Shown: in pieces, positions 11,367-53,341 of the stretch
Position numbering within the stretch: position 1 is the first letter of the stretch
Layout of the letters: every line of letters starts with the position of its first letter
Origin: Pristiophorus japonicus
Lineage: Eukaryota
Reading direction: 5' to 3'
Length of the DNA: 64,000 nt
NCBI RefSeq assembly: GCF_044704955.1
Contig: NC_092006.1
Location: 4,712,001 to 4,776,000 of the forward strand
Program-made: the position numbers and the translations under genes
The notes under the pieces: model-generated
Seen by the model: the letters and a program-made list of their open reading frames with translations, nothing else
The model's database searches: none
What the model was told of the DNA's origin: nothing

Positions 11367-11450
11367 GGCGCCCCGCAAGACCAGACTTTCTACGCCTCTC
11401 TGCAATTCAAAGCCGCGGAAAAGTCATCAAGAAAGAAGGCGGGTCGCTGA
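11367..11450 (+). CDS. Gene A terminal exon with TxYxxL motif
   Basis: tgtctcag acceptor; GAPQDQTFYASLQFKAAEKSSRKKAGR*; paralogous motif in genes B-D. Confidence 0.8.
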   Translation, partial: GAPQDQTFYASLQFKAAEKSSRKKAGR

Positions 11451-12141
11451 TGAGAACCCCGGAGGGGTTTCTAGCCGGTGGACGAGGGAGGAGACGGAAC
11501 TCGCAAAGAAGAATGCCCAGCCCGGCGGAGATAAGACTGAAGCCACAGAGACTCCAATCAAACATCCGGGGGCTGGGCTTTGCACTTCACATCGCTGGCC
11601 TAGTGCCCATATATCACCCAAAATGCCCTGCTATCGCCCATTTCACTTCGCTGACCTATCGGCGAGTGGAAAATCGCGATACAAAAAATGGGCGATGTTC
11701 CAGCGATCAGTAAGGCTGACACATCGACCATCGCTGGAACATCGTTCATTTTTTGGGCGATAGTCTAGCCTACCTCCCTGTGTTTGGAAGGGTTTGCAAA
11801 CACTCTTTCTGTTGAATGTAAAAGACCCGTGCTTTGAGTATTGTAAAGATGTCCCACTGTATTAGTGAGACCACCATTTAGACCAGGGTCTTCTCAGTTT
11901 CCTGATTCTCTGAATCTTTTTCTGCTGACCCTGTAATTCCGGTCAGTAACAAGATTGGGGTTTTTTTTGTCGCAAATGCTTGAATATAAATAAAATAAAT
12001 GATCCTTTGACTGTAATGATGCACAGGAGGTTCCTATTGTTCAATGCTTCACTTACAATTAAATGTCATCTGGATAAAACTTCGCTGGCTCTGAGCTGCC
12101 AATATCAGTCCTGAATTGAAAGAGTGTTAGTGGCGATATTC

Positions 12142-14405
12142 ATAGAAACATAGAAAATAGGTGCAGGAGTAGGCCATTCGGCCCTTGTAGCCTGCACCGC
12201 CATTCAATGAGTTCATGGCTGAACATGCAACTTCAGTACCCTATTCCTGCTTTCTCGCCATACCCCTTGATCCCCCTAGTAGTAAGGACTACATCTAACT
12301 CCTTTTTGAATATATTTAGTGAATTGGCCTCAACAACTTTCTGTGGTAGAGAATTCCAAAGGTTCACCACTCTCTGGGTGAAGAAGTTTCTCCTCATCTC
12401 GGTCCTAAATGGCTTACCCCTTATCCTTAGACTGTGTCCCCTGGTTCTGGACTTCCCCAACATTGGGAACATTTTTCCTGCATCTAACTTGTCTGAACCC
12501 ATCAGAATTTTAAACGTTTCTATGAGGTCCCCTCTCATTCTTCTGAACCCCAGTGAATACAAGCCCAGTTGATCCAGTCTTTCTTGATAGGTCAGTCCCG
12601 CCATCCCAGGAATCAGTCTGGTGAACCTTCGCTGCACTCCCTCAATAGCAAGAATGTCCTTCCTCAAGTTAGGAGACCAAAACTGAACACAATACTCCAG
12701 GTGTGGCCTCACCAAGGCCCTGTACAAATGTAGCAACACCTCCCTGCCCCTGTACTCAAATCCCCTCGCTATTCACTGTCTGAGGCCGCGATAGGCTTAA
12801 TTGCTTACAGACTAACAACAGGAGAGAAACGAGGGCAGAGATGCAAGGAATTTATCCATTTTACCTTTGGCTTGTGTGTTTTGGTATGTGTAGTAATTAT
12901 AGAATGGTTACAGCACAGAGGAAGGCCATTTGGTCCATCGAGTCTGTGCCGACTCTGAACAAGTCCAACTCACCCCCTCGTCCTTTCCCCGTAGCCCTGC
13001 AAAATTCTTTCCTTCAGATACTTACCCAACTCCCTTTTGAAAGCCCCGATTGAGTCTGCCTCCACCACCCTCTCAGGCAGCGCTTTCCAGATCCCAACCA
13101 CTCGCTGCGTAAAAACGTTTTTACTCACGTCGCCTTTGGTTCGTCTACCAATCGCCTTCAATCTGTGTCCTCTGGTTCTCCACCCTTCCACCAATGGGAA
13201 CAGTTTCTCTCGATCTACTCGGTCCAGACCACCCATGATTTTGAACATCTCGATCAAATCTCCTCTCAATCGTTTCTGCCCCACGGACAACAACCCCGGC
13301 TTCTCCAGTCTCGCCCCGTCACTGAAGTCCCTCATTCCTGGAAGCATTCTCGTAAATCCTTCCTGCACCCTCTCCAAGGCCTTCACATCCTTCCCACAGT
13401 GCGGTGCCCAGAATTGGACACAATGCTCCAGTTGGGGGCCAAACAGATAACTTCCCCACTTTTCCACTCTACACCTCAACTTATGGACCCCAGATACCCG
13501 TCAGCCTTTGTAACTGCTTTCTCAACCTTGCTAGAACGACTGTCCGAGACAGATGAGTGAGTGTAGCATGGCTTGGGAGGACTGGATGACTTTGGACCTG
13601 TGGTCCCCAAAGCTCTCCATAACTGGGGGCTTTGCTCAAGTCAGGTCTGGGTCTGTTGTAGACTAATGGGTTGCGATGGTTTACCATTATCATTGGATCA
13701 CGCGAGCACCAGGATGGTAGAAGGCGAGCAAGATAATATTTATCTTTCTCTTTCCCATGGCAACTAGTGATGATTTCAACATTCACACCCCATCTAGACT
13801 CAGCTTTACTTTCCTATCTTATACCGTTACCATCTCAATTCGGCCCATTGTCCCCTTTTGCCTCTCTAATCTCTCCTGCCTTCCCCCCGATCACAGACCT
13901 TCCCGTTTGTTCTTTCATAAGAACATAAGAACATAATATAAGAACATAAGAATTAGGAACAGGAGTAGGCCATCTAGCCCCTCAAGCCTGCTCCGCCAGT
14001 CAACAAGATCATGGCTGATCTGGCTGTGGACTCAGCTCCACTTACCCGCCCGCTCCCCGTAACCCTTAATTCCCTTATTGGTTAAAAATCTATCTATCTG
14101 TGACTTGAATACATTCAATGAGCTAGCCTCAACTGCTTCCTTGGGCAGAGAATTCCACAGATTCACAACCCTCTGGGAGAAGAAATTCCTTCTCAACTCG
14201 GTTTTAAATTGGCTCCCCCGTATTTTGAGGCTGTGTCCCCTAGTTCTAGTCTCCCCGACCAGTGGAAACAACCTCTCTGCCTCTATCTTGTCTATCCCTT
14301 TCATTATTTTAAATGTTTCTATAAAATCACCCCTCATCCTTCTGAACTCCAACGAGTAAAGACCCAGTCTACTCAATCTATCACATTAAGGTAACCCCCT
14401 CATCT
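12142..14405 (-). mobile_element. Three CR1 LINE 3' fragments
   Basis: ORFs 12233-12739, 12970-13479 and 14032-14376 encode the CR1 ORF2 C-terminus ([19 protein letters not shown]..). Confidence 0.9.
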
Positions 14406-17289: not shown

Positions 17290-18690
17290 TATATTCAGAG
17301 GAAAGGTTGGATAGGCTGGCGTTGTTGTCTTTGGAACAGAGGAGGCTGAGGGGAGAGCTAATTGAGGTGTGTAAAATGCTGAGGGGCCAGGATAGAGTGG
17401 ATAGGACGGACCTGTTTCCCTTGGCAGAGGGGTCAACAACCAGGGGGGATAGACTGAACGTAATTGGGGGGAGGTTTAGAGGGGAGTTCAGGAGAACTTT
17501 GTTCACCCAGAGGGTGGTGGGGGTCTGGGGCGGAGCTCGCTGCCTGAAAGGGCGGTAGAGGCAGAAACCCTCACCACATTTGGATGTGCACCTGAAGTGC
17601 CGTAACCTACAGGGCTACGGACCAAGAGCGGGAAAGTGGGATTAAGCTGGGTGGCTCTTGGTCGGCCGGCCCGGACACGATGGGCCGTAATGGCCTCCTT
17701 CCGCGCTGTAAGTTTCTAGCGTTTCTATGGTTTCAGAGGAAACTTTCCACCATGCTTCATATCCATGAGCTGTTCACTTTCCTTTCCCGTCGGACTGTTG
17801 GATCCGCCTTAAATGCCAGTTGGGCGTAAAGAGTCTATGAGAGAAAACAGAAACCATTATCGCGGCTCACATCATCACCATCGGAACGGAGTGACAGGAG
17901 GAGGCCATTCAGCCCCTCGAGCATGTTCCCCCACTCAATAAGATAAGAACATAAGAAATAGGAGCAGGAGTCGGCCATTCGGCCCCTCGAGCCTGCTCCG
18001 CCATTTAATGAGATCATGGCCGATCTGATCATGGACTCAGCTCCACTCCCCTGCCCGCTCCCCATAACCTCTTATCGCCTTATCGTTCAAGAAACTGTCT
18101 ATCTCTGTCTTAAATTTATTCAATGTCCCGGCTTCCACAGCTCTCTGAGGCAGCAAATTCCACAGATTCACAATCCTCTGAGAGAAGAAATTTCTCCTCA
18201 TCTCAGTTTTAAATGGGCGGCCCCTTATTCTAAGATCGTGCCCCCTAGTTCTAGTCTCCCCCATCAGTGGAAACATCCTCTCTGCATCCACAGCTGATCC
18301 TGTATCTTAACTCACTCTACCCACCTTGGTTCCCTAACCCTTAATCCCCTTACCCAACAAGAGTCGATCCACCTCTGTCTTGACATTTCCAACTGACCCC
18401 CGACCTCGACAGCTTTTTGGGGGAGAGAGTTCCAGATTTCCGCTCCCCTTTGTGTGAAGAAGTGTTTCCTGTCATCACCCCTGAACGGTCTGGCTCGAAT
18501 TTTAAGGTGACGTCCCCTTGGTCTGGACTCACCCCGCCAAAGGAACTCGTTTCTCTCTCTATCCACCCTATCGAACACTTTAATCATCATAAACAACTCG
18601 ATTAGATCGCCCTTTAATCTTCTATACTCCAGGGAATAAAAGCTTAGTCTGTGCAACCTGTCTTAATAATTTAACGCTTTTAGCCCCTGT
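17290..18690. mobile_element. CR1 fragments in the 3'UTR and last intron of gene B
   Basis: ORFs 17265-17558 (+), 18037-18291 (-) and 18312-18656 (-) have CR1 motifs. Confidence 0.85.
17757..17834 (-). CDS. Gene B terminal exon with TxYxxL motif
   Basis: ttttctctcatag acceptor; TLYAQLAFKADPTVRRERKVNSSWI*. Confidence 0.82.
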   Translation of the reverse strand, partial: TLYAQLAFKADPTVRRERKVNSSWI

Positions 18691-18699
18691 ATTATTAGT

Positions 18700-20321: not shown

Positions 20322-20380
20322 CTCCTTATCTCTTGCACCTGGTCTGGAATCCGTGAATTTCTCATCGCTGGCCGTGTTAC
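20322..20380 (-). CDS. Gene B cytoplasmic exon (59 nt)
   Basis: tttatttcag acceptor, GAG|gtgaga donor; GNTASDEKFTDSRPGARDKE; same length and phases as the gene D exon at 51049-51107. Confidence 0.78.
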
Positions 20381-21754: not shown

Positions 21755-21871
21755 CTGACTGCCGGGTCCTGCAGCTCCAGCTCGCCATCACCGTCACCAT
21801 CAGGAGGAGGAGAAGCACCACCGAGCAAGTCACCAAAACCCATAAACTACAGTCGCTGTGCAGCGGGAGCC
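21755..21871 (-). CDS. Gene B stalk plus transmembrane exon
   Basis: GLPLHSDCSLWVLVTCSVVLLLLLMVTVMASWSCRTRQS; 117 nt, like gene D; uncharged TM. Confidence 0.85.
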
Positions 21872-22053: not shown

Positions 22054-22084
<31 letters not shown>

Positions 22085-24120: not shown

Positions 24121-24423
24121 CGCTCAGCGATGAGATGCTTTCACTGATGAAATTGCCGGTGGAATTGACCGGAACGGCGCAAGTGCAGACAGCGCCACTC
24201 CGCCAAGTTTCCGCCGAGACGCTGAGGTGACTCCCGACCGTGAGCGTCCCGTCCGGCTCGGTGGTCCCGGAGTCGCTCCGTCCCTCGGCGAGCCGTCCCG
24301 AAACATTCCAGCGGACGGGAAGGGAATCGGGAGTCAGGCTTCTGACCAGACACAGCAGCGGGACCCTCGCCAGCGAGGGAATTTCGTCCTGCGGCGGAGT
24401 TAAGAGCTGTATTTCCGGAGACC
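24121..24423 (-). CDS. Gene B C1-set domain
   Basis: GSPEIQLLTPPQDEIPSLARVPLLCLVRSLTPDSLPVRWNVSG..EPDGTLTVGSHLSVSAETWRSGAVCTCAVPVNSTGNFISESISSLS; AG/GT ends, phase 1. Confidence 0.92.
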
Positions 24424-24500: not shown

Positions 24501-24839
24501 CTGTAATGAGCAATTTCGAGCCGTTTCCGAATATAAGGTGCAATAGACTAGATTTCTTAGCTGCGCAGTAATACACCCCTGAATCGTTCCCCTGGACCTC
24601 GTTCACAATCAGAGAGTAAATATTGAATTTGTCTTCAATTTGGCCGGAAAATCTTCCTTCAGGAATATTGTAGTTCCTCACGGTGTAAACTTTCTGGAGA
24701 GGTCCTCGGTTCTGCTGCTTATACCACTGCACAGCTCGAGTCAGCAACTGACCAGCGTGACAATCTGTCTTGAAGGTACTGCCAACCGAGAGAGTCTGGA
24801 CCGACGGACTCTGGGCGAAATAGTCCTGGGAGGCAATAA
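24501..24839 (-). CDS. Gene B germline-joined VJ domain
   Basis: IASQDYFAQSPSVQTLSVGSTFKTDC..VQWYKQ..GRFSG..YSLIVNEVQGNDSGVYYCAAKKSSLLHLIFGNGSKLLIT|gtaag; the FGxG J motif is in the same exon. Confidence 0.94.
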
Positions 24840-25411: not shown

Positions 25412-26456
25412 GGGAAAGAAAGAGTTGGATTTATATAGCGCCTTTCGCAAACATTGGACTCAAAGTGCTTTACAGCCAATGAAGTACTTTTTGAAGTGTG
25501 GTCACTGTTGTAATGTGGGAAACACGGCGCACAGCAAGGTCCCACAAATAGCAATGTGATAATGACCCAGATCATCTGTTTTCGAGATGCTGATTGAGGG
25601 ATAAATATTGGCCCCAGGACACCGGGGAGAACTCCACCTGCTCTTCTTCGAAATAGTGGCCGTGGGATCTTTTATGTCCGCTCGAGAGAGCAGACGGGGC
25701 CTCGGTTTAACGTCTCAGGCAATAGACGGAGAATATTGACATTGGGTCTATTTCCCACCAGCCTGAGATATTGCACGATGCTAATATCAGCGAACGCAGC
25801 GCGTAATCTCTGACTCGGCTGACGAGCTCGCTGATCTTACGCCGCAGTTCCGCCATGGATTACCAGCAAATTCGACTGACCTGGAAAGAGAAGGGCGAGC
25901 ACGCAGGGAGCTAAGCGATGCATTATCTGCGACCTGAGGCTTTTGCTGTCCAGCTCCACACTGACGCTTTGCCGGGAGGTCTTTGCGCCCGCAAGCGACG
26001 TGAAATGCACACAGCTTGCAGAACGTGCGTTTAAAAATAGCGGTCTGGAAAATCCAGCCCGGTGCAAAAGCTGGCTGCGGGTTTCCTGTTGACACACGAG
26101 GCGCCCACGCACAGATGTGCCTGCAAAGGGCAATGTGTTACAGCTGGTCTGAAGGGTGCTGTGCAGTCGAGACCCATTAAACCGTGAACTAACGCCAGGC
26201 GGTGCAGAATTCCACACACCGTGTACCGCTTGTGCAATTCGAGTGGCCGCGGGGGAATTATCCCGTTTCCGAGTGTTGCGATCGATTGGTCCAGAATGCA
26301 TTCATTGATACACCCTTACTCGTACCAACAAAAAATGGATCACATTCTGCCCAGAGAATGCCCTTCAAATTCTTACACTGGTAAAAAAGCAGGCACAAGG
26401 CCTCTTTTTTTACCAGCGTAAGAGTTTAAAGCAACAGGAAAATAAAATATTATCAC

Positions 26457-28554: not shown

Positions 28555-31500
28555 TCAGAACATAAGACACAGGAGCAGGAGTCGGCCATTTGGCCCCTTG
28601 AGCCTGCTCCGCCATTCAATACGATCACGGCTGATCTTCGACCTCAGCCCCACTTTCCTGCACTGTCTCCTTGATTCCCTTAATATTCCAATATCTGTCT
28701 TGAATATACTCAACGACTGAGCCTCCACAGCCCTCTGGGGCAGAGAACTCCAAAGATTCGCCACCCTCTGAGTGAAGAAATTCCTCCTCATCTCAGTCCT
28801 GAAGTTTCTCCTGAATTCCCCCTTGGATTTCTTGGTGACCATCTGATATTGATGGCCTCTAGTTATGCGCTTCTGGCATAGGTGGATACACTCTGTTTGT
28901 GTCTACTCGATCAAAACCTTTCATAATTTTAAAGACCTCGTCTGTGCTGTAAGGTGATTCTAATAGCAGGTAAATTCCGCCAGAATTTTGCTGAAGATAT
29001 CACTGCACTGCATTATTGAAAAGCGCAATTTGAATTTAAAATAATCCACTTTTAATAGTAAATGTGACAGGGTTCATTCCCAGGATACAACCAGAGAACG
29101 CCCTGGATCCACTTACACGCCAGCTTTGCCAACAATGCCCCGGAGTCAGTGCCTGAGCTACCCTGTGGGTCCTTGGTTTCACTGACACACCGCACACATT
29201 TGTTCTTTCAATCTGTGCTGTAAATCGGCCGCAGAGATATTCTGAGCGCATCTGGACCGAGCGATCAAAGAGCAGGATTCACATCCACAACGCTGGGGTT
29301 TCAAAACCAGTTTAATTTATCTGTAAACATTACATATGAATTATATCACGTGCTGTATAAAGATGTACACAGCACGGAAACCACAAATACAAGAATTTGG
29401 CATTACAATACTTGAAATTAGTTGAGTATATTCAAGACGGAGAGCGATAGAGGAGCAGGAGTTGGCCATTCGGCCCCTCGAGCCTGCTCCGCCATTTGAT
29501 ACCATCATGGCCGCTCTGATCATGGACTCAGCTCCCCTTCCCCGCCTGTTCCCCATAACCCTTTACTCCCTTATCGCTCAAAAATCTGTCTATCTCTGTC
29601 TTAAATATATTCAATGACCCAGCTTCCACAGCTCTCTGAGGCAACGAATTCCACAGATTTACAACCCTCTGAGAGAAGGAATTCCTCCTCATCTCAGTTT
29701 TAAGTGGGTGGCCCCTTATTCTGAGACTATGCCCCCTAGTTTTAGCTTCGCTTATGAGTGGAAACATCCTCTCTGCATCCACCTTGTCGAGCCCCCTCAT
29801 TATCTTATATGTTTCCATTAGATCACCTCTCATTCTTTTGAACTCCAATGGGTAGAGGCCCAACCTACTCAACCTTTCCTCATAAGTCAACCCCCTCCGG
29901 AATCAACCGAGTGAACCTTCTCTGAACACCCTCCAATGCAAGTATATCCTTCCTTAAATACGGAGACCAAAACTGCACACTGTACTCCAGGTGTGGCCTC
30001 ACCAATACCCTGTACAGTTGTAGCAGGACTTCTCTGCTTTTATACTCCATCCCCCTTGCAATAAGACCAACATTCCATTCCAGTTGAGATCGAAGATCGG
30101 CCATGATCTTATTGAATGGCGGAGCAGGCTCGAGGAGCCAAATGGCCTTCTCCTGCTCCTAATTCGTATATTCTAAAATAGAGATTAAACTGAACAGTAA
30201 CCGACATATCATCGTAAGAACAGTAGCCCAACACAACGCTATGTAAGAGTCCATTTCAATTGTAGAGTTTTCGATTGGACCCAATTGGGAAATCGCGCCC
30301 AAACTATGTTTGAAATTGCACCGACTGTCCGGCAAAACAGAGGAAGCTTTGCACACCATATCGTCTTTCCTTTCCCATCAGAGTGTTGGCTCCATGTTAA
30401 ATGCCAGCTGGGCATAAAGAGTCTATGAGAGAAAACAGAAACAATTACCACGGCCCACATCTTCAGCGTCGGAACAGTGGGACAGGAGAGGGCCATTCAG
30501 CCCCTCGAGCCTGTTCCCCCATTCAGTTTGATCATGGCTAATGTGTATCTGAACTCCATCCGCCCGCCTTAAATACCCTCGCCCAACACCAATCTTTCAT
30601 CGCAGTTTTGAACATTTCAATTGACCCTCAGCCTCAACAACTTTATGAGGGAGAGAGTTCCAGGTTCCCGCGGCCCTTTGTCTGAAGATGTGTTTCCTGA
30701 CATCACCCCTGAACGGCCGGGCTCGAATTTTAAGGTCAAGCCCCCTTGTTCTGGACTCCCCAGACTCTCTCAAATTCTCTAATCATCTTAAATATCTCGA
30801 TTACATCACCCTATAATCTACACTCGAGGGAAAACAAGGCCAGTCTAAGAACATAAGAACATAAGATTTAGGAGCAGGAGTCAGCCATTCGGGCCCCTCG
30901 AGCCTGCTCCGCCATTCAATGAGATCACGGCTGACCTTCGACCTCAACTCCACTTTCCTGCCCCATCTCCATATCCCTTGTTCCCCCAGACTCCGAAAAT
31001 CTCTCGATCTCAGCCTTGAATATACTCAACGACTGAGCCTCCACAGCCCTCTGGGGCAGAGAATTCCAAAGATTCACCACCCTCTGAGTGAAGAAATTCC
31101 TCCTCATCTCAGTCCTAAATGGCCGACCCCTTATCCTGAGACTGTGTGACCCCTGGTTCTAGACTCCCCAGCCCTGATATGATTCAATGAGATCACCTCT
31201 CATTCTTGTAAACTTCAGAGAGTATGGGCCCAGTCGACTCAACAGGTATATGCAACCTGTCCCATAATATAACCCTTTTAGCATGTTGGGACATTTTATT
31301 GGTTGTTGATAGCGCAGGTATAATTGTAGTGAATCGGCAATCTGTGGGTATTTATAATTACTGACTTAAAATATCCAAATATAGATATTTGAATTTACTT
31401 TTAAATAAAAGGTGAATTTGTTTATTCATTCCTGGGATGTGGGCATGGCTGGCAAGGCCAGCATTTATTGCCCATCCCTAATTGCCCCTTGAGAAGGTGG

Positions 31501-33041: not shown

Positions 33042-33148
33042 CTGACTGCCGCTCCGGACAGCCGCCACAGACACCATCAGGAACAGGAGAAGCGTCGCCA
33101 ACAAATTCAGGACCAACCGCAATCCGCAGGCGCTCTGTGACGGAGACA
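33042..33148 (-). CDS. Gene C stalk plus transmembrane exon
   Basis: cttttcttacag acceptor; VSPSQSACGLRLVLNLLATLLLFLMVSVAAVRSGSQ|gtaggg; 10 nt shorter than in B, so it ends in phase 0. Confidence 0.75.
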
Positions 33149-35582: not shown

Positions 35583-35888
35583 CTCCCGGAGATGCGACGC
35601 TTTCACTCAGGAGATCCCCGGTGGCGTTGATCGGAACGGTGCAAATGCAGACGGCGCCGCTGCGCTAGGTTTCGGCCGAGACGCTCAGGTGGCTTCTGGC
35701 GGTATAGCTCCCGTCCGGCTCCAGCGTCCTGGGCTCGCTCCGTCCCTCGGCGGCCCGTCCCGCAACCAGCCAGCGGATGGGGAAGGAGTCGGGAGCAGCG
35801 CCCCGCACCAGACACATCAAGGGCACTCTCTCCAGCCGGGGAATCTCAGCCGGCGGCGGCGTTAAGAGGAAGAGGACCGGGGGGCCCG
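35583..35888 (-). CDS. Gene C C1-set exon (contains an in-frame TAG)
   Basis: AGPPVLFLLTPPPAEIPRLERVPLMCLVRG..IRWLV..DGSYTARSHLSVSAET*RSGAVCICTV.. Confidence 0.85.
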
Positions 35889-35979: not shown

Positions 35980-36318
35980 CTGTGATCACCAGCGTGGTGC
36001 CAGTCCCGAATATCAGGGACCGATTCCTGGCGTTTGGAGCAGCGCAGTAATACCGCCCAGAATCGTTCCTCTGGACGTTGTCAATGACCAGCGAATAATT
36101 CCCCGATTGCTCGCATACCTCGCCGGAAAATCTTCCCCCGGGCCTCACGAACCGTCCGGTTTTGTAAACGAGCCGCATGCCCTCTCGGTGCCAGTGTGTG
36201 TACCAGTAAACGATGCCCGGGGCCAGCCTCCCGGTCTGGCATTGAAGTTTGACCAGGCTCCCGACATCGGCCGTTAGCAGCGCCGGAAATTGGCTCAAGA
36301 CTGCCTGAGACACGACAG
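35980..36318 (-). CDS. Gene C germline-joined VJ exon
   Basis: AVVSQAVLSQFP..VKLQC..VYWY..GRFSG..DSGRYYCAAPNARNRSLIFGTGTTLVIT|gtaat. Confidence 0.92.
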
Positions 36319-37219
36319 CTGAGTCAAGGTTGCAGGGTGGGGGGGGGGGGACGCAAAAATTAAAACACAATATTAACAACAGGTTATAGGCCCCCGAGTC
36401 ACCCTGGATACCGACACATCTCAAATTCCCCTCCACTGGCGCGTCGGGAGCGCGTGTGGGAAATTCCGCCGCGCTGCGCACCGTTAAATTGCGCCTCTCC
36501 GCCCGCAATTCCCACAGGCGCACAGTCCGAGTCCGTTCGCTGTGAAATCCGCTCCAATCATTGGCGGGCACCATGGCGACTGGCTGCAGTTAAGATTGCA
36601 AAAGCCTTCTCCCAAACCGATTATGCTTCCCCCTGGTCTAACCCGGCTCTCCAATCCATCTCTCCAGGGGTTGGGGACCGGGGGGCGCTTGATTGTGTTA
36701 AAATGGGGCGATAGCTTTCTCACTAATTCCACTAGACAGGCCCCCCTCTCCCAACGGCAGACCCTCACCTTCAAATCCCGGAGTTCACTGACATCTTTAT
36801 CTCAGTTAGGGGGCAGTTCAGTGTCACATTCGGTTCCACTCACCCGTCACAATGTTCGGCTCCAAAGTCGCGCTATCGGTATTGAGCGAAGCCCGCACAC
36901 CTTTATACTTTGCCCAATATCTAATCTGCTTCTTAAAAAAATTATAGTTAAACGCAAACTTGTGTATCAGCGAACGATGCAACACAGGAGGCCATTCGGC
37001 CCATCAAACCTGTGTCCAATTCCCCCGTTTGAAAGTCACTTTTTCATCTGCTCCCAGTACCCCTTTCAGGCAGCGCGTTCCCGAGCACAAGCTCTCAGGG
37101 CTTGAAATCATGTCCTGATCTCCCCCTCTGGTTCTGTTACCGATTATCTTAAACATGTGTCCTCTGCTTACCCACACCCTCCTCCCACTGGAAACAATCT
37201 CTCCTTCTTTACTCGATCG

Positions 37220-38520: not shown

Positions 38521-38577
38521 GGTTTACTCTCTCCTAACCCCTTCCTCACTCTGGCAAAACATCGAAGGCTATCTCAC

Positions 38578-38620
38578 CTTGGAAGAGATGGAACAGCACA
38601 CAGAGACCACAGAAGCTCAT
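38578..38620 (-). CDS. Gene C leader exon
   Basis: MSFCGLCVLFHLFQ, then G|gtgaga; identical to the gene D leader. Confidence 0.8.
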
Positions 38621-39319
38621 TATCCCTGCCCCAGGAGGATTGAACTCTGATGCTGGGACTGTCAGCTCAGGGAGGAATGCTTGTCAGCAGGTCTGTGCGA
38701 GGCTGGTGTGAAATGCCGAGCCAATTGTGGTAAGCACGCACTGTGTTTATTAATAAATGTACGATTTGGGCTGCAAAATAGTGCCGAAGCAGAAAGCTCT
38801 GTGTGGGTTTCCTGTTTTTACAGGTAAAGAGATAAAACACACACACACCATCTGTGTTACAGAAGGCACCTCGTCTCTACGCATGTTAGTTTGACCACAC
38901 TTGGAGCACTGCGCACGGTTCTGGTCTCCATCTTTCAAAAGAATATAGAGACACTGGAGCGGGTGTAAACAAGATTCAGAAAGATGACACCAGAACTGAG
39001 AGCGGTGAGACTGATCAGGAAAGGCTCAACAGACTGGGGCACTTTTCTCCAGAAAATTACATAGTATGTACATCACAGAAACAGACCATTCAGCCCCACC
39101 GCTCCGTGCCGGGGTTTATGCTCCACACCAGCCCCTCCCACCCCTCTCCATCTCACCCCATCCCCATATCCTTCTATTCCTTTCTCCCTCATGTGTTTAT
39201 CCAGCCTCCCCTTAAATACATCGATACTATTCGCCTCAACCCCTCCCTGTGGCAGTGAGTTCCACATCTCAGCGCTCTCTGGGTCAAGAAGTTTCTCCTG
39301 AATGCCCCATTGGGTTTAT

Positions 39320-43810: not shown

Positions 43811-45624
43811 TCCCTGCATAATGTATCTGTTTAAGTCTCAAATGAGGTATTGTATACTGGGATTACTCCAACCCCGGTAGATTTCTCTATTTGAACTAAC
43901 CGGAACTACGCGTGAGTTGGATAAAATTTACCAAAGATATTTGATAGCATTCCATTGCTCCCACAAGTCACACACCACCTCGGGATTTCCGGATCTGCTT
44001 TACAGCCAACGGAGCAACATTTTCAAGTGTGGTCACTGGTGCAATGTCGGGACACGCGGCCAATTTCCGCATAGCAAGCTCCCACAAACTCACGCTTACC
44101 AAAAGAAAATCACTAAACTGGCTGTAAAGCGCGTTGGGACGTCCTGATGTCGTGAAAGGCACTATATAAATTCCCTAAATTAAGAAGTGTGGGTTATAGA
44201 CAGGCCCCAGTCTCTAGAACTTGTTGGTCCCTGTTTACCGATTACACCTAGTTCGAACAGAAATGCACACAGTAAAGTTAGTTATTTATTCTCAATATTG
44301 TTTCCGATCCTCCTTTTCTAAGAGGAGCCAATTCTAGTTCTCGGGTCTGTTTCTTGCACAGTCCTCGGGCCTTATCTTGTGTGTTTTTACATTCTTAGCA
44401 CGTCTACATTACATCTGACTTCTCCATACCTCAAATATGTGCTCACCCCCCACCCCGTTATAGAGAAGGCTGTATGGATCCTATCCACTACCGTCTCACA
44501 ATAGAGATGTTTCCACTTGTGGGAGAGGCTAGATCTAGGGGGCCATCACTATACGACAGTCACCCATAAATCCAATGGGGAATTCAGGAGAAACTTCATC
44601 ACCCAGAAAATGGGGAGAATGTGGAACTCGCTGCCAAAGGGAGGGGTTGAAAATAGGTGCAGGAACAGGCCATTCGGCCCTTTGAACCTGCACCACCATT
44701 CAATATGATCATGGCTGATCATGCAACTTCAGTACCCCATTCCTGCTTTCTCTCCATACCCCCTTGATCCCTTCAGCCGTAAGGACCACATCTAACTCCC
44801 TTTTGAATATATCCAACGAACTGGCCTCAACAACTCTCTGCAGGAGAGACTTCCACAGGTTCAAAATTCTCTGATTGAAGATGTTTCTCCTCATCTCGGT
44901 CCTAGATGGCTTACCCCTTATCCTGAGAGTGTGACCCCTGGTTCTGGACTTCCCCAACATCGGGAACATTCTTCCTGCATCTACCCGGTCCAATCCCGGC
45001 AGAATCTGAGGCGAATAGTATCGATGCATTTAAGGGGAGGCTGGATCAACACATGAGGGAGAAAGTAATAGAAGGATATGGGGATGGGGTGAGATGGAGA
45101 GTGGTGGGAGGGGCTGGTGTGGAGCATAAACCCCGGCACGGAGCGGTGGGGCTGAATGATCTGTTTCTGTGATGTACATTCTCTCTAATTTTCGAGAGAA
45201 AAGTGCCCCAGTCTGTTGAGCCTTTCCTGATCAGTATAACCTCTCTCAATTCTGGTGTCATCTTTCTGAATCTTGTTTACACCCGCTCCAGTGTCTCTAT
45301 ATTCTTTTGAAAAATGGAGACCAGAACCGTGCGCAGTGCTCCAAGTGTGGTCAAACTAACATGCGTAGAGACGAGGTGCCTTCTGTAACACAGATGGTGT
45401 GTGTGTGTTTTATCTCTTTACCTGTAAAAACAGGAAACCCACACAGAGCTTTCTGCCTTGGCACTATTTTGCAGCCCAAATCGTACATTTATTAATAAAC
45501 ACAGTGCGTGCTTACCACAATTGGCTCGGCATTTCACACCAGCCTCACACCGACCTGCTGACAATCATTCCTCCCTGAGCTGCCAGTCTCAGCATCAGAG
45601 TTCAACCCTCCTGGGGCAGTGATA

Positions 45625-45667
45625 ATGAGCTTCTGTGGTCTCTGTGTGCTGTTCCATCTCTTCCAAG
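45625..45667 (+). CDS. Gene D leader exon
   Basis: MSFCGLCVLFHLFQ, then G|gtgaga, phase 1. Confidence 0.82.
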
Positions 45668-45724
45668 GTGAGATAGCCTTCGATGTTTTGCCAGAGTGGG
45701 GAAGGGGTTAGGAGAGAGTAAACC

Positions 45725-47860
45725 AAGGGAAGGGTTTTGGAGCAAATTAATAAGGAAAAGGGTTTTGGAGAGAATTAATAAGGAGAAGGGTTTTGGAGGG
45801 AATTAATAAGGAGAAGGGTTTTGGATAGAATTAATGAGGAGAAGGGTTTTGGAGAGAATTAAAAAGGAGAAGGGTTTTGGAGGGAATTAATAAGGAGAAG
45901 GGTTTTGGAGAGAATTAATGAGGAGAAGGGTTTTGGAGAGAATTAATAAGGAGAAGGGTGTTGGATACAATTAATCAGGAGAAGTGTTTTGGATAGATTT
46001 AATAATGAGAAGGGTTTTGGATAGAATTAATAAGGAGAAGGGTTTTGGAGAGAATTAATAAGGAGAAGAGTTTGGATAGATTTAATAATGAGAAAGGTTT
46101 TGGATAGAATTAATAAGGAGAAGGGTTTTGGAGAGAATTAATAAGGAGAAGGGTTTTGGATAGAATTAATAACGAGAAGGGTTTTGGAGAGAATTAATAA
46201 GGAGAAGGGTTTTGAATAGATTTAATAATGAGAAGGGTTTTGGATAGAATTAATAATGAGAAGGGTTTTGGATAGAATTAATAATGAGAAGAGTTTGGAT
46301 AGATTTAATAATGAGAAAGGTTTTGGATAGAATTAATAAAGAGAAGGGTTTTGGAGAGAATTAATAAGGAGAAGGGTTTTGGATACAATTAATAAGGAGA
46401 AGGGTTTTGGATACAATTAATAAGGAGAAGGGTTTTGGATAGATTTAATAATGAGAAGGGTTTTGGATAGAATTAATAAGGAGAAGGGTTTTGGAGAGAA
46501 TTAATAAGGAGAAGGGTTTTGGAGAGAATTAATAAGGAGAAGGGTTTTGAATAGATTTAATAATGAGAAGGGTTTTGGATAGAATTAATAAGGAGAAGGG
46601 TTTTGGATAGAATTAATAAGGAGAAGGGTTTTGGAGAGAATTAATAAGGAGAAGGGTTTTGGATAGAATTAATCAGGAGAAGGTTTTGGAGAGAATTAAT
46701 AAGGAGAAGGGTTTTGGAGAGAATTAATGAGGGGAAGGTTTTGGAGAGAGTTAATAAGGAGGAGGGTTTTGGAAAGCATTAATAAGGAGAAGGGATTTGG
46801 AGAGAATTAATAAGGAGAAGGGTTTTGGATAGAATTAATAATGAGAAGGTGTTTTGGATAGAATTAATAATGAGAACGGTTTTGGATAGAATTAATAAGG
46901 AGAAGGGTTTTGGAGAGAATTAATAAGGAGAAGGGTTTTGGATAGATTTAATAATGAGAAGGGTTTTGGATAGAATTAATAATGAGAAGGGTTTTGGAGA
47001 GAATTAATAAGGAGAAGGTGTTTTGGATAGAATTAATAATGAGAACGGTTTTGGATAGAATTAATAAGGAGAAGGGTTTTGGAAAGAATTAATAAGGAGA
47101 AGGGTTTTGGAGAGAATTAATAAGGAGAAGGGTTTTGGATAGAATTAATAATGAGAAGGGTTTTGGATAGAATTAATAAGGAGAAGGGTTTTGGAAAGAA
47201 TTAATAAGGAGAAGGGTTTTGGATAGATTTAATAAGGAGAAGGGTTTTGGATAGATTTAATAAGGAGAAGGGTTTTGGATAGAATTAATAATGAGAAGGG
47301 TTTTGGATAGAATTAATAAGGAGAAGGGCTTTGGATAGAATTAATAAGGAGAAGGGTTTTGGAGAGAATTAATAAGGAGAAGGGGTTTGGAGAGAATTAA
47401 TAATGAGAATGGTTTTGGAGAGAATTAATAATGAGAAGGATTTTGGAGAGAATTAATAAGGAGAAGGGTTTTGCAGAGAATTAATAATGAGAAGGGTTTT
47501 GGAGAGAATTAATAATGAGACGGTTTTTGGAGAGAATTAATAAGGAGAAAGGTTTTGGAGAGAATTAATAAGGAGAAGGATTTTGGAGGGAATTAATAAG
47601 AAGAAGGGTTTTGGAGAGAATTAATAAGGAGATGGGTTTTGGAGGGAATTAATAAGGAGATGGGTTTTGGAGAGAATTAATAATGAGAAGGGTTTTGGAG
47701 AGAATTAATAAGGAGAAGCGTTTTGGAGAGAATTAATAAGGAGAAGGGTTTTGGAGAGAATTAATAAGGAGAAGCGTTTTGGAGAGAATTAATAAGGAGA
47801 CGGGTTTTGGAGAGAATTAATAAGGAGAAGGGTTTTGGATAGAATTAATAAGGAGAAGGT
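45725..47860. repeat. 28-bp minisatellite in gene D intron 1 (about 76 copies)
   Basis: Unit GAGAAGGGTTTTGGAGAGAATTAATAAG, the reverse complement of the 37220-38520 array. Confidence 0.95.
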
Positions 47861-48855
47861 TTCCGATCGAGTAAAGAAGGAGAGATTGTTTCCAGTGGGA
47901 GGAGGGTGGGTAAGCAGAGGACACATGTTTGAGATAATCGGTAACAGAACCAGAGGGGGAGTTCAGGACGTGATTTCAAGCCCTGGGAGCTTGTGCTCGG
48001 GAACGCGCTGCCTGAAAGGGGCACTGGGAGCAGATGAAAAAGTGACTTTCAAACGGGGGAATTGGATAAATATTTGGAAAGGAGGCAATATGCCGGGCTG
48101 TGGGGAAAGAGCAGGGGCGGAGTGGGAATGATTGAGTCGCTCTGTCACAGAGCCGGCACAACACAGGTTTGATGGGCCGAATGGCCTCCTGTGTTGCATC
48201 GTTCGATGATACACAAGTTTGCGTTTAACTATAATTTTTTTAAGAAGCAGCTTAGATATTGGGCAAAGTATAAAGGTGTGCGGGCTTCGCTCAATACCGA
48301 TAGCGCGACTTTGGAGCCGAACATTGTGATGGGTGAGTGGAAGCGAATGTGACACTGAACTGCCCCCTAACTGAGATAAAGATGTCAGTGAACTCCGGTA
48401 TTTGAAGGCGAGGGTCTGCCGTTGGGAGAGGGGGGCCTGTCTAGTGGAATTAGTGAGAAAGCTATCGCCCCATTTTAACATAATCAAGCGCCCCCCGGTC
48501 CCCAACCCCTGGAGAGATGGATTGGAGAGCCGGGTTAGACCAGGGGGAAGCATAATCGGTTTGGGAGAAGGCTTTTGCAATCTTAACTGCAGCCAGTCGC
48601 CATGGTGCTCGCCAATGATTGGAGCGGATTTCACAGCGAACGGACTCGGACTGTGCGCCTGTGGGAATTGCGGGCGGAGAGGCGCAATTTAACGGTGCGC
48701 AGCGCGGCGGAATTTCCCACACGCGCTCCCGACGCGCCAGTGGAGGGGAATTTGAGATGTGTTGGTATCCAGGGTGACTCGGGGGCCTATAACCTGTTGT
48801 TAATATTGTGTTTTTTTAATTTTTGTGTCCCCCCCCCCCCGCAACCTTGTCTCAG

Positions 48856-49194
48856 CTGTCGTGTCTCAGGCGGTCTTGAGCCAATTTCCGGCGCTGCTAA
48901 CGGCCGATGTCGGGAGCCTGGTCAAACTGCAATGCCAGACCGGGAGGCTGGCCCCAAGCATCGTTTACTGGTACACACACTGGCACCGAGAGGACATGCG
49001 GCTCGTTTACAAAACCGGACGGTTCGTGACGCCCGGGGGAAGATTTTCCGGCGAGGTATGCAAGCAATCGGGGAATTATTCGCTGGTCATTGACAACGTC
49101 CAGAGGAACGATTCTGGGCGGTATTACTGCGCTGCTCCAAACGCCGGGAATCGGACCCTGATATTCGGGACTGGCACCACGCTGGTGATCACAG
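48856..49194 (+). CDS. Gene D germline-joined VJ exon
   Basis: AVVSQAVLSQFPALLTADVGSLVKLQC..VYWY..DSGRYYCAAPNAGNRTLIFGTGTTLVIT|gtaat. Confidence 0.94.
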
Positions 49195-49285
49195 GTAATC
49201 CCACACGCCCATCCAATTGTGCGTCGAGACACCAATTCAAACCTGCCTTGTGCGCCTGGTTAATTCCAATTTCCCTTCCATCTAG

Positions 49286-49591
49286 CGGGCCCCCCGGTCC
49301 TCTTCCTCTTAACGCCGCCGCCGGCTGAGATTCCCCGGCTGGAGAGGGTGCCCTTGATGTGTCTGGTGCGGGGCGTTGCTCCCGACTCCTCCCCCATCCG
49401 CTGGCTGGTTGCGGGACGGGCCGCCGAGGGACGGAGCGAGCCCGGGACGCTGGAGCCGGACGGGAGCTATACCGCCAGAAGCGTCCTGAGCGTCTCGGCC
49501 GAAACCTGGCGCAGCGGCGCCGTCTGCACGTGCACCGTTCCGATCAACGCCACCGGGGATCTCCTGAGTGAAAGCGTCGCGTCTCCGGGAG
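49286..49591 (+). CDS. Gene D C1-set exon
   Basis: ..VPLMCLVRGVAPDSSPIRWLV..EPDGSYTARSVLSVSAETWRSGAVCTCTVP..; AG/GT ends, phase 1. Confidence 0.92.
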
Positions 49592-50829
49592 GTAACTGGA
49601 GCTACTGGCGGTTTGCCAAATAGTTAGTGATAATAATGTTCATTATAGTATTGCTGGGATGTGAGGGTTTTTTTAGCACGAGAGATTGTGTAGAATGGGC
49701 CTATGTTCTCTGGAGTTTCGTATAAGATTATGAGGGGGCTTGACAAGCTGGATGCAGAGAGGATGTTTCCACTGATGGGGGAGACTAGAACTAGGGGGCA
49801 TAATCTCAGAATAAGGGGCCGCCCATTTAAAACTGAGATGAGGAGGAATTTCTTCTCCGAGGGTTGTAAATCTGTGGAATTCGCTGCCTCAGAGAGCTGT
49901 GGAAGCCGGGACATTGAGTAAATTTACGATAGAAATAGACAGTTTCTTAACTGATAAGTAATTAAGGGGTTATGGGGAGCGGGCAGGGAAGTGGAGCTGA
50001 GTCCATGATCGGATCAGCCATGATCGTATTGAATGGCGGAGCAGGCTCGAGGGGCCGAATGGCCGACTCCTGCTCCTATTTCTTATGTTCTTATGGAGTT
50101 TCGAAGAAGGAGAGGTGATCTCATTGAAACGTACAAGACTCTGAGGGGGATTGACAGGGTGGATGCAGGGAGGGTGTTTCCCCCCGGGGCTGGGGAGTCT
50201 AGAACCAGGGGTCACACAGTCTCAGGGTAAGGGGTTGGCCATTTAAGACTAAGATGGGGAGAACGTTCTTCACTTGCGATTTACTACGTTACAGGCGCTA
50301 TATAAATATAAGTTGTTGTATATTGGGAGCACTAGTATGGAAAAGTAGTATTTTATAAATGACATGAGTTTGGAAAACAGCGAGACAGAGAGAGACCATA
50401 TACACAAACCTGTAAATGTGGGAAGGGCAGGTTGGCGAGCTGGTTAAACTGGCTTACGGGGTACTTGAATTTATATAAGGAGATATTAGAACAGTTGACC
50501 AAAAGCTTGGTCAAAGAGGGAGGTTTTACAGAAGGAGGAGAGGCGGAGAGGTTTAGGGAGAGAGTTCCAGAGCTTGGGGCCCCAGGCAGCTGAAGGCACG
50601 GCCACCAATGGTGGAGCGATAGAAATCGGGGGGAATGCTCAAGAGGCCAGGATTGGAAGAGCGCAGAGATCACAGCCACTTACGTTGAGACAGTTCATAG
50701 TTCGTCACCATGCCTTTGATGATTCGGGCCAAAAACCAGCTTCAAACCCTCAGCGGACGAGGTTTCAGAATTTGACTGAATTATTTTGTGTTTCGCTCAT
50801 TTCACAAGAGTTGTCTTTCTGCCGTTCAG

Positions 50830-50946
50830 AGCCCCTTCACAGCTCGACCTGCCGCTTCGCGCTTTATGCCAGCCTGGCGATGGCTCCTCTTGTGATGGGG
50901 TTGATCGGTGTCGCGGTGGCACGGCGTGGCAAGACTCGCCAACCAG
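50830..50946 (+). CDS. Gene D stalk plus transmembrane exon
   Basis: EPLHSSTCRFALYASLAMAPLVMGLIGVAVARRGKTRQP; 117 nt; PLHS..C stalk shared with gene B. Confidence 0.85.
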
Positions 50947-51367: not shown

Positions 51368-52250
51368 CATAAGAACATAAGAACATAAGAATTAGGAACA
51401 GGAGTAGACCATCTAGCCCCTCAAGCCTGCTCCGCCATTCAACAAGACCATGGCTGATCTGGCCGTGGACTCAGCTCCACTTACCCGCCCGCTCCCGTAA
51501 CCCTTAATTCCCTTATTGGTTAAAAATCTATCTATCTGTGACTTGAATGCATTCAATGAGCTAGCCTCAACTGCTTCCTTGGGCAGAGAATTCCACAGAT
51601 TCACAACCCTCTGGGAGAAGAAATTCCTTCTCAACTCGGTTTTAAATTGGCTCCCCCGTATTTTGAGGCTGTGCCCCCTAGTTCTAGTCTCCCCGACCAG
51701 TGGAAACAAACTCTCTGCCTCTATCTTGTCTATCCCTTTCATTATTTTAAATGTTTCTAGAAGATCACCCCTCATCCTTCTGAACTCCAACGAGTAAAGA
51801 CCCAGTCTACTCAATCTATCATCATAAGGTAACCCCCTCATCACCGGAATCAGCCTAGTGAATCGTCTCTGTACCCCCTCCAAAGCCAGTATATCCTTCC
51901 TTAAGTAAGGTGACCAAAACTGCACGCAGTACTACAGGTGCGGCCTCACCAATACCCTATACAGTTGCAGAAGGACCTCCCTGCTTTTGTACTCCATCCC
52001 TCTCGCAATGAAGGCCAACATTCCATTCGCCTTCCTGATTACCTACTGCACCTGCAAACTAACTTTTTGGGATTCATGCACAAGGACCCCCAGGTCCCTC
52101 TGCACCGCAGCATGTTGTAATTTCTCCCCATTCAAATAATATTCCCTTTTACTGTTTTTTTTCCCAAGGTGGATGACCTCACACTTTCCGACATTGTATT
52201 CCATCTGCCAAACCTTAGCCCATTCGCTTAACCTATCTAAATCTCTTTGC
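51368..52250 (-). mobile_element. CR1 LINE 3' fragment in the last intron of gene D
   Basis: ORFs 51413-51925 and 52043-52471. Confidence 0.9.
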
Positions 52251-53305
52251 AACAGTGATGTCTTGCATTTAAATAGCGCCTTTGATGTCCTAAGGCGCTT
52301 CACAGGAGCATTAGTCAGACAAAAATTAAAGGTCGAACCCCACGGGGAGAGATTACGACAGGTGAGCAAAGGCTTGGCCGAGGAGGGAGGTTTTAAGGAG
52401 GAGAGAGGGGCGGAGAGGTTTAGGGAGGGAGTTCCAGAGCTTGGGGCCCAGGCAGCTGAAGGCACGGCCACCGATGGTGGAGCGATTATAATCAGGGATG
52501 GTCAAGAGGGCAGAATTGGAGGAGCAGTAGGAGATAGGGAGGGATGTAGGTGCTGGAGGAGAGTACAGAGATAAGGAGGGGTGTATGGGCTGGAGGAGAT
52601 TACAGAGATAGAGAGGGGTGTAGGGGCTGGAGCAGGTTACAGAGATAGGGAGGGGTGTAGGGGTTGGAGGGGGTTACAGAGATAGGGAGGGGTGTAGGGG
52701 TTGGAGGGGGTTACAGAGATAGGGAGGGGTGTAGGGGCTAAAGGAGGTCACAGAGATAGGGAGGGATGTAGGGGCTGGAGGAGGTTACAGAGTTAGGGAG
52801 GGATGTAGAGGCTGGAGGAGGTTGCAGAGATAGGGAGGGGTGTAGGGCTGGAGGAGAGGCAGTACTGAGGGAGCGCCGCACTGTCGGAGGAGCAGTACTG
52901 AGGGAACACCGCACTGTCGGAGGGACCGTCTTTCGGCTGAGACGTTAAACCGAGGCACCATCTGCCCTCTCGGTTGTAAAAGATCCCGGGGCCACTATTG
53001 GAAGAAGAGCAGGGGGAGTTCTCCCCGGTGTCCTGGGGCCAATATTTATCCCTCAACCAACATCACTAAAAACAGATGATCCGGGTCATTATCACATTGC
53101 TGTGTGTGGGAGCTTGCTGTGCGCAAATTGAGCTGCCGCGTTTCCCACAATACAACAGTGACTGCACTTCAAAAAGTACTTCATTGGCTGTAAGGCGCTT
53201 TGGGACGACCGGTGGTGGTGAAGGGCGCTATAGAAATGCACGTCTATTTCCTTTCAATATAGTTGAGCAGGAAGGTAACGGTTTTCTCGTGTTGTTCCTT
53301 CACAG

Positions 53306-53341
53306 ACTATGTACGCGCACCTGGCATTCGCTGTGGATTAG
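53306..53341 (+). CDS. Gene D terminal exon with TxYxxL motif
   Basis: ttccttcacag acceptor; TMYAHLAFAVD*. Confidence 0.82.
   Translation, partial: TMYAHLAFAVD

Follow-up and report, generated by a model that had tools for sequence, protein, structure and literature searches.

We propose that the tyrosine-based motif encoded in the tails of four receptor genes (A to D) in the 64-kb stretch of DNA analyzed here (the window) is the lone conserved tail tyrosine of non-rearranging VJ-C1 receptors and, quite probably on the strength of its sequence, an ITIM variant that would recruit SHP-2 (or SHP-1). Taken alone, the motif is an ordinary ITIM variant; of greater importance is the locus, an expanded elasmobranch VJ-C1 family in which inhibitory members stand alongside apparently activating ones. 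All four genes have the layout leader, VJ, C1, transmembrane (TM) segment, and tail, with one C1 exon per gene, and the V-set and C1-set exons of each bear out the TCR-shaped (V-C1) ectodomain of the preliminary description. The features are as follows.

1179..1236, + strand: gene A leader exon, matching the N-terminus of public protein P0023
4206..4520, + strand: gene A VJ exon, V-set, with a degenerate J-like end (LRNG) and a strand A about 6 aa shorter than in the horn shark orthologs
4618..4938, + strand: gene A C1-set exon
9577..9678, + strand: gene A stalk and TM exon, with a stalk Cys and an intramembrane Arg (CGT at 9609-9611)
9779..9809, + strand: gene A cytoplasmic exon 1, phase 1 to 2, its peptide matching P0023 and the horn shark orthologs
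10569..10600, + strand: gene A cytoplasmic exon 2, predicted, with a weak GTGAAC donor
11074..11123, + strand: gene A cytoplasmic exon 3, similar to a horn shark tail segment
11367..11450, + strand: gene A last exon, carrying TFYASLQF
11385-11408, + strand: gene A tail peptide TFYASLQF, Tyr codon at 11391-11393
17757..17834, - strand: gene B last exon, with TLYAQLAF at its start
17834-17811, - strand: gene B tail peptide TLYAQLAF
20322..20380, - strand: gene B cytoplasmic exon, 59 nt, phase 1 to 0, aligning with the horn shark orthologs
21755..21871, - strand: gene B stalk and TM exon, with an uncharged TM segment and a stalk Cys
24121..24423, - strand: gene B C1-set exon
24501..24839, - strand: gene B VJ exon, with the end FGNG
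25881..25923, - strand: predicted leader exon of gene B, with homology to the leader region of C and D (local score 73, shuffle maximum 47)
30378..30422, - strand: gene C last exon, B-like, starting with TLYAQLAF
30422-30399, - strand: gene C tail peptide TLYAQLAF
33042..33148, - strand: gene C TM exon, lacking 10 nt relative to B and D and ending in phase 0
35583..35888, - strand: gene C C1 exon, interrupted by the in-frame stop codon TAG at 35667-35665
35980..36318, - strand: gene C VJ exon, sharing 97% identity with that of gene D
38578..38620, - strand: gene C leader exon
45625..45667, + strand: gene D leader exon, matching public model P0001
48856..49194, + strand: gene D VJ exon, with the end FGTG
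49286..49591, + strand: gene D C1-set exon
50830..50946, + strand: gene D stalk and TM exon, agreeing with P0001 and P0008
51049..51107, + strand: gene D cytoplasmic exon, 59 nt, phase 1 to 0
53306..53341, + strand: gene D last exon, which opens with TMYAHLAF and has the same ending as public models P0001 and P0008
53306-53329, + strand: gene D tail peptide TMYAHLAF

The four peptides lie exactly where they had been reported, and in genes B, C, and D the motif indeed opens the exon, directly behind an AG acceptor and in phase 0; gene A differs, its motif beginning 6 codons inside the last exon. Across the six frames of the window, the pattern TxYAxLxF has 4 matches, where 40 Markov shuffles give an expectation of 0.025, and the looser TxYxxLxF has 7 against 0.75. 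The earlier view that the rest of the tails is unalignable did not hold up: the last exons of B and C are 86% identical in DNA, intron end included, genes B and D have the 59-nt cytoplasmic exon in common, and both B-type and A-type tails align with the orthologs of their own type. Only between the A tail and those of B to D is the motif the sole shared part. Because the last exons of B and C are so alike, the motif of gene C is not evidence independent of that of gene B.

The motif had been credited to all four genes, which is right for the DNA of A to D and goes too far for their proteins, gene C being broken and gene A possibly dropping the motif. The in-frame TAG in its C1 exon means that the gene C copy in the window cannot make a motif-bearing protein; a remnant of the 59-nt exon was sought in its last intron, and the scores fell inside the shuffle range. 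In genes B and D, the motif-bearing frames are open (the gene B model is 312 aa), and the only Arg of gene D adjoins the stalk Cys. It is likely that the off-signal motif is clearly used by these two of the four genes only.

As to its class, none of the four window peptides matches the strict ITIM, (S/I/V/L)xYxx(I/V/L), all having Thr at -2, and none matches the strict ITSM, TxYxx(V/I), which must have Val or Ile at +3, all having Leu there. By sequence match, all four do fit the consensus that library screens gave for the C-terminal SH2 domain of SHP-2, (T/V/I/Y)xY(A/S/T/V)x(I/V/L) (PMC12151841, PMC8113834), with Phe at +5, a residue that increases binding to this domain; sharks have kept the SH2 residues (PMC12151841, PMC8113834). 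From this combined misfit and fit, we conclude that the shared tail motif is likely an ITIM variant.

Comparison with homologs narrows what is conserved. YAx[LIV] is present in 31 of 42 homolog tails (shuffled mean 0.47, maximum 4, over 2,000 shuffles), a count that, like the p-values below, is inflated: the profile used to find the rows contained the motif columns, the rows are mutually related, and most of them are unverified gene models. The Tyr is kept in all 12 B-type tails and in 6 of 7 A-type tails, in keeping with the ortholog conservation that had been set as a check. The B-type tails invariably have Ala at +1, Leu at +3, and a hydrophobic residue at +5 (12/12 each; Phe in 8), and Leu at +3 is found in 18/18 motif-bearing elasmobranch tails. 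Thr at -2 is not conserved: it is present in 8/12 B-type tails, the other four having Ser or Asp, and in 0/6 A-type orthologs, four of which have Pro, a residue that matches neither consensus. More distant clades have Val, Leu, or Ile at -2 in 11/15 cases, i.e., canonical ITIMs. The conserved core of the motif is Y-A-x-L-x-(F), retained across sharks, rays, and reptiles. Conservation within the array (28/28 distinct copies) was put aside as weak, the copies being near-identical, with just 10 variants in all in their tails.

Under the preferred reading, ligand binding would lead to phosphorylation of the tail Tyr by a Src-family kinase, the phosphotyrosine would dock an SH2 domain through the residues at -2, +1, +3, and +5, and the recruited SHP-2 (or SHP-1) would dampen activation of the receptor-carrying cell. 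The stalk Cys may form disulfide-linked dimers, and a dimer with one ITIM per chain would offer two phosphotyrosines to the tandem SH2 domains. By a crude measure, a Cys in or adjoining the stalk is found in 42/45 TM-bearing homolog rows. A single Tyr per chain would make a weak SHP-2 activator unless the chains dimerize.

Three other explanations deserve weighing. That the motif is a chance match, or a relic in nonfunctional duplicates, might be suggested by the 3 of 7 loose matches that lie outside genes and by the premature stops in 4 of the 28 distinct copies; against this stand the exon context, the public models that end in the motif, and conservation from rays to turtles, such that we regard this explanation as highly improbable and, by ortholog conservation, already largely refuted. 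Tyrosine motifs also direct endocytosis, the Yxx-hydrophobic sorting signal of CTLA-4 being an example, and YAxL conforms to the general sorting pattern. The Tyr might then serve chiefly in adaptor-mediated endocytosis, setting the surface level of the receptor over signaling, and the C-type genes, with the motif about 10 residues from the membrane, would suit such a role. We nevertheless consider this quite unlikely, because the conserved Ala at +1 and hydrophobic residue at +5 are SH2 determinants (PMC8113834), and the motif tends to go missing where an Arg is present in the TM segment, a signaling-type pattern.

The remaining explanation is that the motif of B to D is a true ITSM, as in the SLAM family, binding SAP/EAT-2-type adaptors or SHP-2 according to cell type. 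Thr at -2 with a hydrophobic residue (Leu, Met, or Phe) at -1 corresponds to what SAP needs to bind CD150 (PMC12151841), two-thirds of the B-type tails have that Thr, and an sh2d1a-like gene is expressed in bamboo shark T cells (PMC11372145). The invariant Leu at +3, where the ITSM requires Val or Ile, the Ser or Asp at -2 of the other B-type tails, and the lack of Thr in the A-type orthologs speak against it, and Thr at -2 is equally among the residues preferred by the C-terminal SH2 domain of SHP-2 (PMC12151841). We judge a true ITSM unlikely. Of the original inference of a switch or inhibitory motif, the sequences support the part that sees an inhibitory motif for SH2 docking below a V-C1 ectodomain, and the switch or SAP reading is weak, since +3 is Leu and Thr at -2 is not family-wide.

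Gene A complicates the picture. An in-frame path to its motif exists via 9779-9809, 10569-10600, 11074-11123, and 11367-11450. P0023 corresponds to gene A minus 10569-10600 and ends in QES, short of the motif; inclusion of this exon keeps the motif in frame, and skipping leads to a stop. An earlier model using an acceptor at 9766 was open but gave a peptide unlike the orthologs and P0023, and it was replaced by that at 9779. Arg in the TM segment with a short tail is the design of the LILRA receptors that couple to FcR-gamma (PMC10679719), and horn shark P0019 has an Arg at gene A's offset from the stalk Cys and lacks the motif. Whether gene A is an activating member that skips the small exon, loses the motif, and couples through its TM Arg to an FcR-gamma-type adaptor is in our view about evenly balanced. 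Among the seven gene A copies, 5 have Arg and 2 Gly in the TM segment, with the motif exon intact in all 7. No splice-site difference between them was found around 10569-10600, and as the Gly copies share the same splice sites, the DNA does not predict skipping in the Arg copies alone.

Among the homologs, rows with Arg or Lys in the TM segment have the motif in 5 cases and lack it in 7, against 31 and 5 for rows without such a residue (Fisher p=0.005, inflated by the relatedness of the rows). A turtle and crocodilian set gave 7 and 12 against 63 and 19 (p=0.002, likewise inflated). The predicted proteins of the family thus show a paired-receptor pattern, with motif-bearing and Arg-TM forms.

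The four-gene cassette is repeated 7 times, giving the 28 distinct copies; the assembly has 12 cassettes, of which 5 look falsely duplicated. A 559,609-base repeat, within 4.82-5.94 Mb of the contig, may be an artefact of assembly. The array is flanked by PEX11, dermatopontin-like, PAQR5/6-like, and relaxin-3-receptor-like genes, a set that may point to the human 1q21-24 region. No MHC class I match was found on the contig carrying the array. The V and J-like segments lie in one germline exon, with FGxG in B, C, and D and a degenerate form in A, and no RSS match was found within the window. The second domain is a C1-set domain with three Cys and no FGxG.

The family was found in sharks, rays, turtles, alligators, and a caecilian, and in a tree the reptile and caecilian V-C1 proteins group with those of sharks in a separate C1 clade (support 99/98). 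The best match of a turtle protein in the genome bearing the array is the array itself, by a thin margin (5.6e-7 against 1.8e-6). The family probably is the PRARP/VJC1 family, as judged from the described features of the latter. These genes, PRARP (Fu et al. 2019) and VJC1 (Ohta et al. 2019), are said to form a gene pair in bony vertebrates and reportedly have, as found here, a germline-joined VJ exon without RSS, a V-C1-TM layout whose tail has a single ITIM/ITSM-like motif, two ancient lineages lying next to each other, a stalk Cys, and relatives in turtles, alligators, and a caecilian. They are also said to form disulfide-linked homo- or heterodimers and to lie in an MHC or MHC-paralogous region. 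In contrast to such a pair, the elasmobranch array has 28 distinct copies with Arg-bearing, motif-less members. Existing database labels are only 'kappa light chain-like' or 'uncharacterized', and no shark description was found in the literature searched, although the primary PRARP and VJC1 papers may mention shark orthologs. In the text of one supplementary file of PMC10751288, no mention of prarp, vjc1, paqr6, pex11b, rxfp4, or XP_041037741 was found. The best 60 matches listed in a PDB sequence search were antibodies and UrIg2, with no family member; the best 50 listed by Foldseek were mostly Fab light chains at 21-26% identity, and an atlas search gave generic V-C1 clusters and nothing more specific.

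Several known systems come close. The NITRs of ray-finned fish (10.1101/2021.06.11.448072) likewise have a germline-joined VJ, a tandem multigene cluster, and ITIM and charged-TM forms, but in these the second domain is of the I type, carries six Cys, and usually has a J motif, so the shark genes are not NITRs. UrIg and UrIg2 of elasmobranchs (PMC12227049) share the non-rearranging VJ exon and the split leader followed by C1 domains; they have 3 and 9 C1 domains, respectively, and are MHC or Ig/TCR linked, whereas the shark family has a single C1 in its own clade on a contig without an MHC class I match and falls outside that group. With TCR chains and Ig light chains, the V-C1 fold is shared; separate V and J segments with RSS, which mark the rearranging receptors, are absent here, as is a conserved charged TM residue, while the ITIM-like tail and separate C1 clade are additional differences. 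PD-1 and SLAM-family ITSMs resemble the motif in the SH2-docking tail Tyr and, for PD-1, the hydrophobic +3 and +5, and the LILRB/LILRA receptors in their ITIM tails against Arg-TM forms with short tails (PMC10679719); in contrast to these, the shark family has a single Tyr, not tandem motifs, with Leu at +3, and its ectodomain is V-C1, where theirs consist of V alone, V-C2, or C2 repeats.

Non-rearranging VJ-C1 genes have been sought as relatives of the gene invaded by RAG (PMC12227049). One doubtful though conceivable scenario is that sharks and rays retain a germline receptor of two TCR-built chains, in which an A-type and a B-type chain would pair via V, C1, and the stalk disulfide. Each chain would contribute one ITIM, so that both SH2 domains of SHP-2 could be occupied, and replacement of the A chain by one with the Arg and without the micro-exon would switch the receptor from inhibitory to activating. 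A predicted complex of the A and D ectodomains weakly favors pairing, scoring 0.59 against 0.00 for the best control, and likeness to Fab/TCR possibly accounts for that score. If true, such a receptor would be a living model of the heterodimeric antigen receptor before RAG and would fill the place of the NK-type paired receptors missing from cartilaginous fish.

The CDR-like loops of the gene A chain have 21 nonsynonymous and 0 synonymous variants and, by this count, are under apparent diversifying selection, as expected for a fast-changing ligand.

The last exons of the four genes encode a short tyrosine-based peptide in their cytoplasmic tails, as the preliminary description had claimed:

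11385-11408, plus strand: gene A motif, TFYASLQF
17834-17811, minus strand: gene B motif, TLYAQLAF
30422-30399, minus strand: gene C motif, TLYAQLAF
53306-53329, plus strand: gene D motif, TMYAHLAF

In B, C, and D it begins, as proposed, at a phase-0 exon start, with an AG acceptor directly before the Thr codon, whereas in gene A it lies six codons inside its exon. Translated in six frames, the window holds four occurrences of TxYAxLxF, whereas 40 Markov shuffles gave 0.025; for the looser TxYxxLxF the counts are seven and 0.75, three of the seven lying outside genes. The claim that all four genes carry the motif holds for their DNA but not for all of their products, gene C having a stop (TAG, 35667-35665) within its C1 exon and the public model of gene A ending before the motif. 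Judged from the predicted gene models, the motif is real, is of an ordinary type (probably an ITIM variant), and can clearly be used by two of the four; the receptor family around it is the more interesting object.

These genes share a layout of leader, VJ, C1, stalk-TM, cytoplasmic exon(s), and last exon, with GT-AG introns and Pfam V-set and C1-set domains. The V exon ends in FGxG in B, C, and D and in a degenerate LRNG in A, and a search of the 64-kb window turned up no RSS-like site. The gene B model (312 aa) is open, as is that of D (299 aa), which from residue 16 onward, tail included, is identical to the public model P0008; the closest named match, at 99% identity, carries the label Pristiophorus japonicus. 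For the D-type protein P0001, AlphaFold predicts two Ig domains confidently and leaves the tail unstructured (mean pLDDT, 69.4); the top PDB matches to this model are for the most part Fab light chains (21-26% identity). Public models of relatives include forms that lack the TM exon (P0011, P0013, P0015, P0020, and P0047), some of which keep the tail motif; these are possibly secreted or mispredicted isoforms.

Gene C is a mosaic, with V and C1 exons 97% identical to those of D and TM and last exons nearer B; its TM exon is 10 nt shorter, and a search for its middle cytoplasmic exon found none. By this comparison, it acquired its motif recently, as a copy of that of gene B. C and D are oriented away from each other (35576-39238 and 45007-49598), with 93-97% identity from leader to C1, an intronic tandem repeat included, and differing TM regions and tails. 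This looks like an inverted duplication or gene conversion yielding near-identical ectodomains with different tails. In gene A, the reading frame extends to the motif only if a predicted 32-nt exon at 10569-10600, whose donor (GTGAAC) is weak, is included; the public gene model P0023 is exactly gene A with this exon skipped and ends in ...QES.

Named relatives were found in elasmobranchs (horn shark, white shark, smooth-hound, zebra shark, catshark, whale shark, sawfish, stingray, devil rays, skate, and electric ray) and beyond them in turtles, alligators, and a caecilian. A C1 tree of 100 rows sets 59 family rows, chosen by a shark-derived profile, apart (99/98) from 41 Ig-type C1 rows, an outgroup without labelled TCR, MHC, or SIRP rows; A-type (99/83) and B/C/D-type (97/99) sequences form two distinct clades, both of which include sharks and rays. 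The tail set was drawn from the best 150 of 10,209 matches, keeping short one- or two-stretch proteins and adding named ones, and comprised 58 rows, 45 with a TM segment and 42 with a tail of at least 20 aa. YAx(L/I/V) was present in 31 of these 42 tails against a shuffled mean of 0.47. The Tyr, whose loss from orthologs would have spoken against the motif, is kept in 12/12 B-type tails, together with Ala at +1 and Leu at +3, and in 6/7 A-type tails. Position -2 is T (8), S (2), or D (2) in B-type tails, where +5 is F (8), V (2), or I (2); it is P (4), I (1), or S (1) in A-type tails and V/L/I in 11 of the 15 motif-bearing tails among 23 from other clades. From these counts at -2 we infer that ancestrally the motif was a canonical ITIM, (V/I/L)xYAxLx(F/L), and that Thr at -2 is a habit of the B lineage which gene A acquired separately. 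One clade (P0098, P0110, P0139, P0147, P0153, P0157, and P0169; 99/74) has the motif in none of its six TM-bearing rows, three of which have a charged TM residue.

Scored against the ITIM and ITSM definitions in PMC12151841, the four peptides match neither in strict form. They do match the SHP-2 C-SH2 library consensus, which, according to PMC12151841 and PMC8113834, accepts Thr at -2, favors Ala at +1, and gains binding from Phe at +5; the former also describes the SH2 contact residues as conserved across jawed vertebrates. The motif Tyr would probably be phosphorylated and then recruit SHP-2/SHP-1. Of the inhibitory or switch role proposed earlier, the inhibitory side thus gains from the SHP-type match, and the switch side, via SAP, is weakened by Leu at +3 and by the variability of position -2. 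SAP binding is unlikely, though Thr at -2 with a hydrophobic -1 and a sh2d1a-like transcript in shark (PMC11372145) keep it in consideration. SHP recruitment aside, tyrosine-based tail peptides can also be sorting signals, which seems quite improbable here.

Gene A raises another alternative, as an Arg lies inside its TM segment (9609-9611) in five of the seven distinct A copies. Among 48 TM-bearing rows, five have both a TM Arg/Lys and the motif, seven the basic residue alone, 31 the motif alone, and five neither (p=0.005), and 101 further TM-bearing rows from a turtle-seeded search gave 7, 12, 63, and 19 in the same order (p=0.002), the rows in these counts being kin to one another and partly isoforms. 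In the five rows with both, the basic residue sits at the stalk edge. The horn shark protein P0019 has an Arg at gene A's offset from the stalk Cys and lacks the motif; a TM Arg without the motif is the LILRA design (PMC10679719). Against an activating gene A, its two Gly copies do not differ from the Arg copies in their splice sites, and its motif exon is not decayed; we put the odds as about even.

The stalk Cys is nearly invariant in the family, and at the interface position we take A-type V domains to resemble VL/V-alpha (GEAPKL) and B/D-type ones VH/V-beta. ESMFold2 scored a pairing of the A and D ectodomains at 0.59 against 0.00 for the best control (contact agreement of at least 72%, partner pLDDT of at least 78), weak support for a dimer that may come from Fab/TCR likeness. 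In a calibration without antibodies the mark was reached by 51/78 solved and 2/108 mismatched pairs, and at 0.60 or below lay only 5/78 solved pairs, yet all four passing mismatches. The family may work like the NITR and LILR paired receptors; it differs from NITRs in its C1-set domain with three Cys, and is neither a NITR nor a rearranging receptor. It is probably a PRARP/VJC1 member, with a layout that fits these genes. UrIg was rejected by comparison with its description in PMC12227049. The literature searched offered no description of the shark genes, although the PRARP/VJC1 primary papers and supplementary figures could contain one.

The window forms the opening unit in an array of A+ B- C- D+ cassettes; the contig G000:C32 has 48 C1 exons, i.e., 12 cassettes, at 4.71-6.0 Mb. 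For five of the cassettes there is a second occurrence exactly 559,609 bases away (4.82-5.94 Mb), and the 8/8 10-kb pairs tested, from two of these five, show no mismatch. The exact offset and mismatch-free pairs suggest that this is probably a false assembly duplication rather than a very recent real one, leaving seven distinct cassettes (28 genes). All 28 keep the motif in their DNA; four have premature stops (gene copies C1, C5, B3, and B5), and two copies, C6 and D12, have in-frame deletions within the C1 exon. The A V exon copies (window 4206-4520 and the assembly stretches L001, L005, L009, L013, L017, and L021) differ by nonsynonymous variants alone (21, with 0 synonymous; binomial p=0.003), many in CDR-like loops, versus 5 and 6 in their own C1 (Fisher p=0.0005); being one of 16 cells examined, this excess is suggestive only. 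V exons of B, C, and D have pN/pS of 0.46-0.75. In all seven A V exons, strand A is about six residues shorter than in horn shark orthologs. In two cassettes, remnants of an A-like TM exon and of the beginning of cytoplasmic exon 1 (L039:5124-5366 and L027:8242-8485, minus strand) lie 16-17 kb upstream of gene A. They are frameshifted and interrupted by LINE-like sequence, and a scan of 9 kb revealed no V, C1, or motif exon.

Pfam scans of the longest 287 (plus two checked separately) of 694 low-repeat frames identified these genes within 100-130 kb of the array:

L040:1389-3276: dermatopontin-like
L042-L043: PEX11
L049:8467-8961: RERG/RASL-like GTPase
L054:5990-6298: PAQR5/6-like
L060:5570-6751: relaxin-3-receptor-like GPCR, intronless

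We take this set to resemble human 1q21-24. None of the 41 MHC class I matches lies on the array contig. Nine near-identical ones at G000:C3:316.6-319.3 Mb have alpha1 and alpha2 in a single open frame (419-777 aa) without the usual intron, and may be retrocopies that were amplified or a class I lineage lacking introns. A retrovirus-like element, recognized by eye from translations, lies between cassettes 1 and 2 (G000:C32:4,783,900-4,791,900; L025-L026), its gag-, pol-, and env-like open frames being fragmented.
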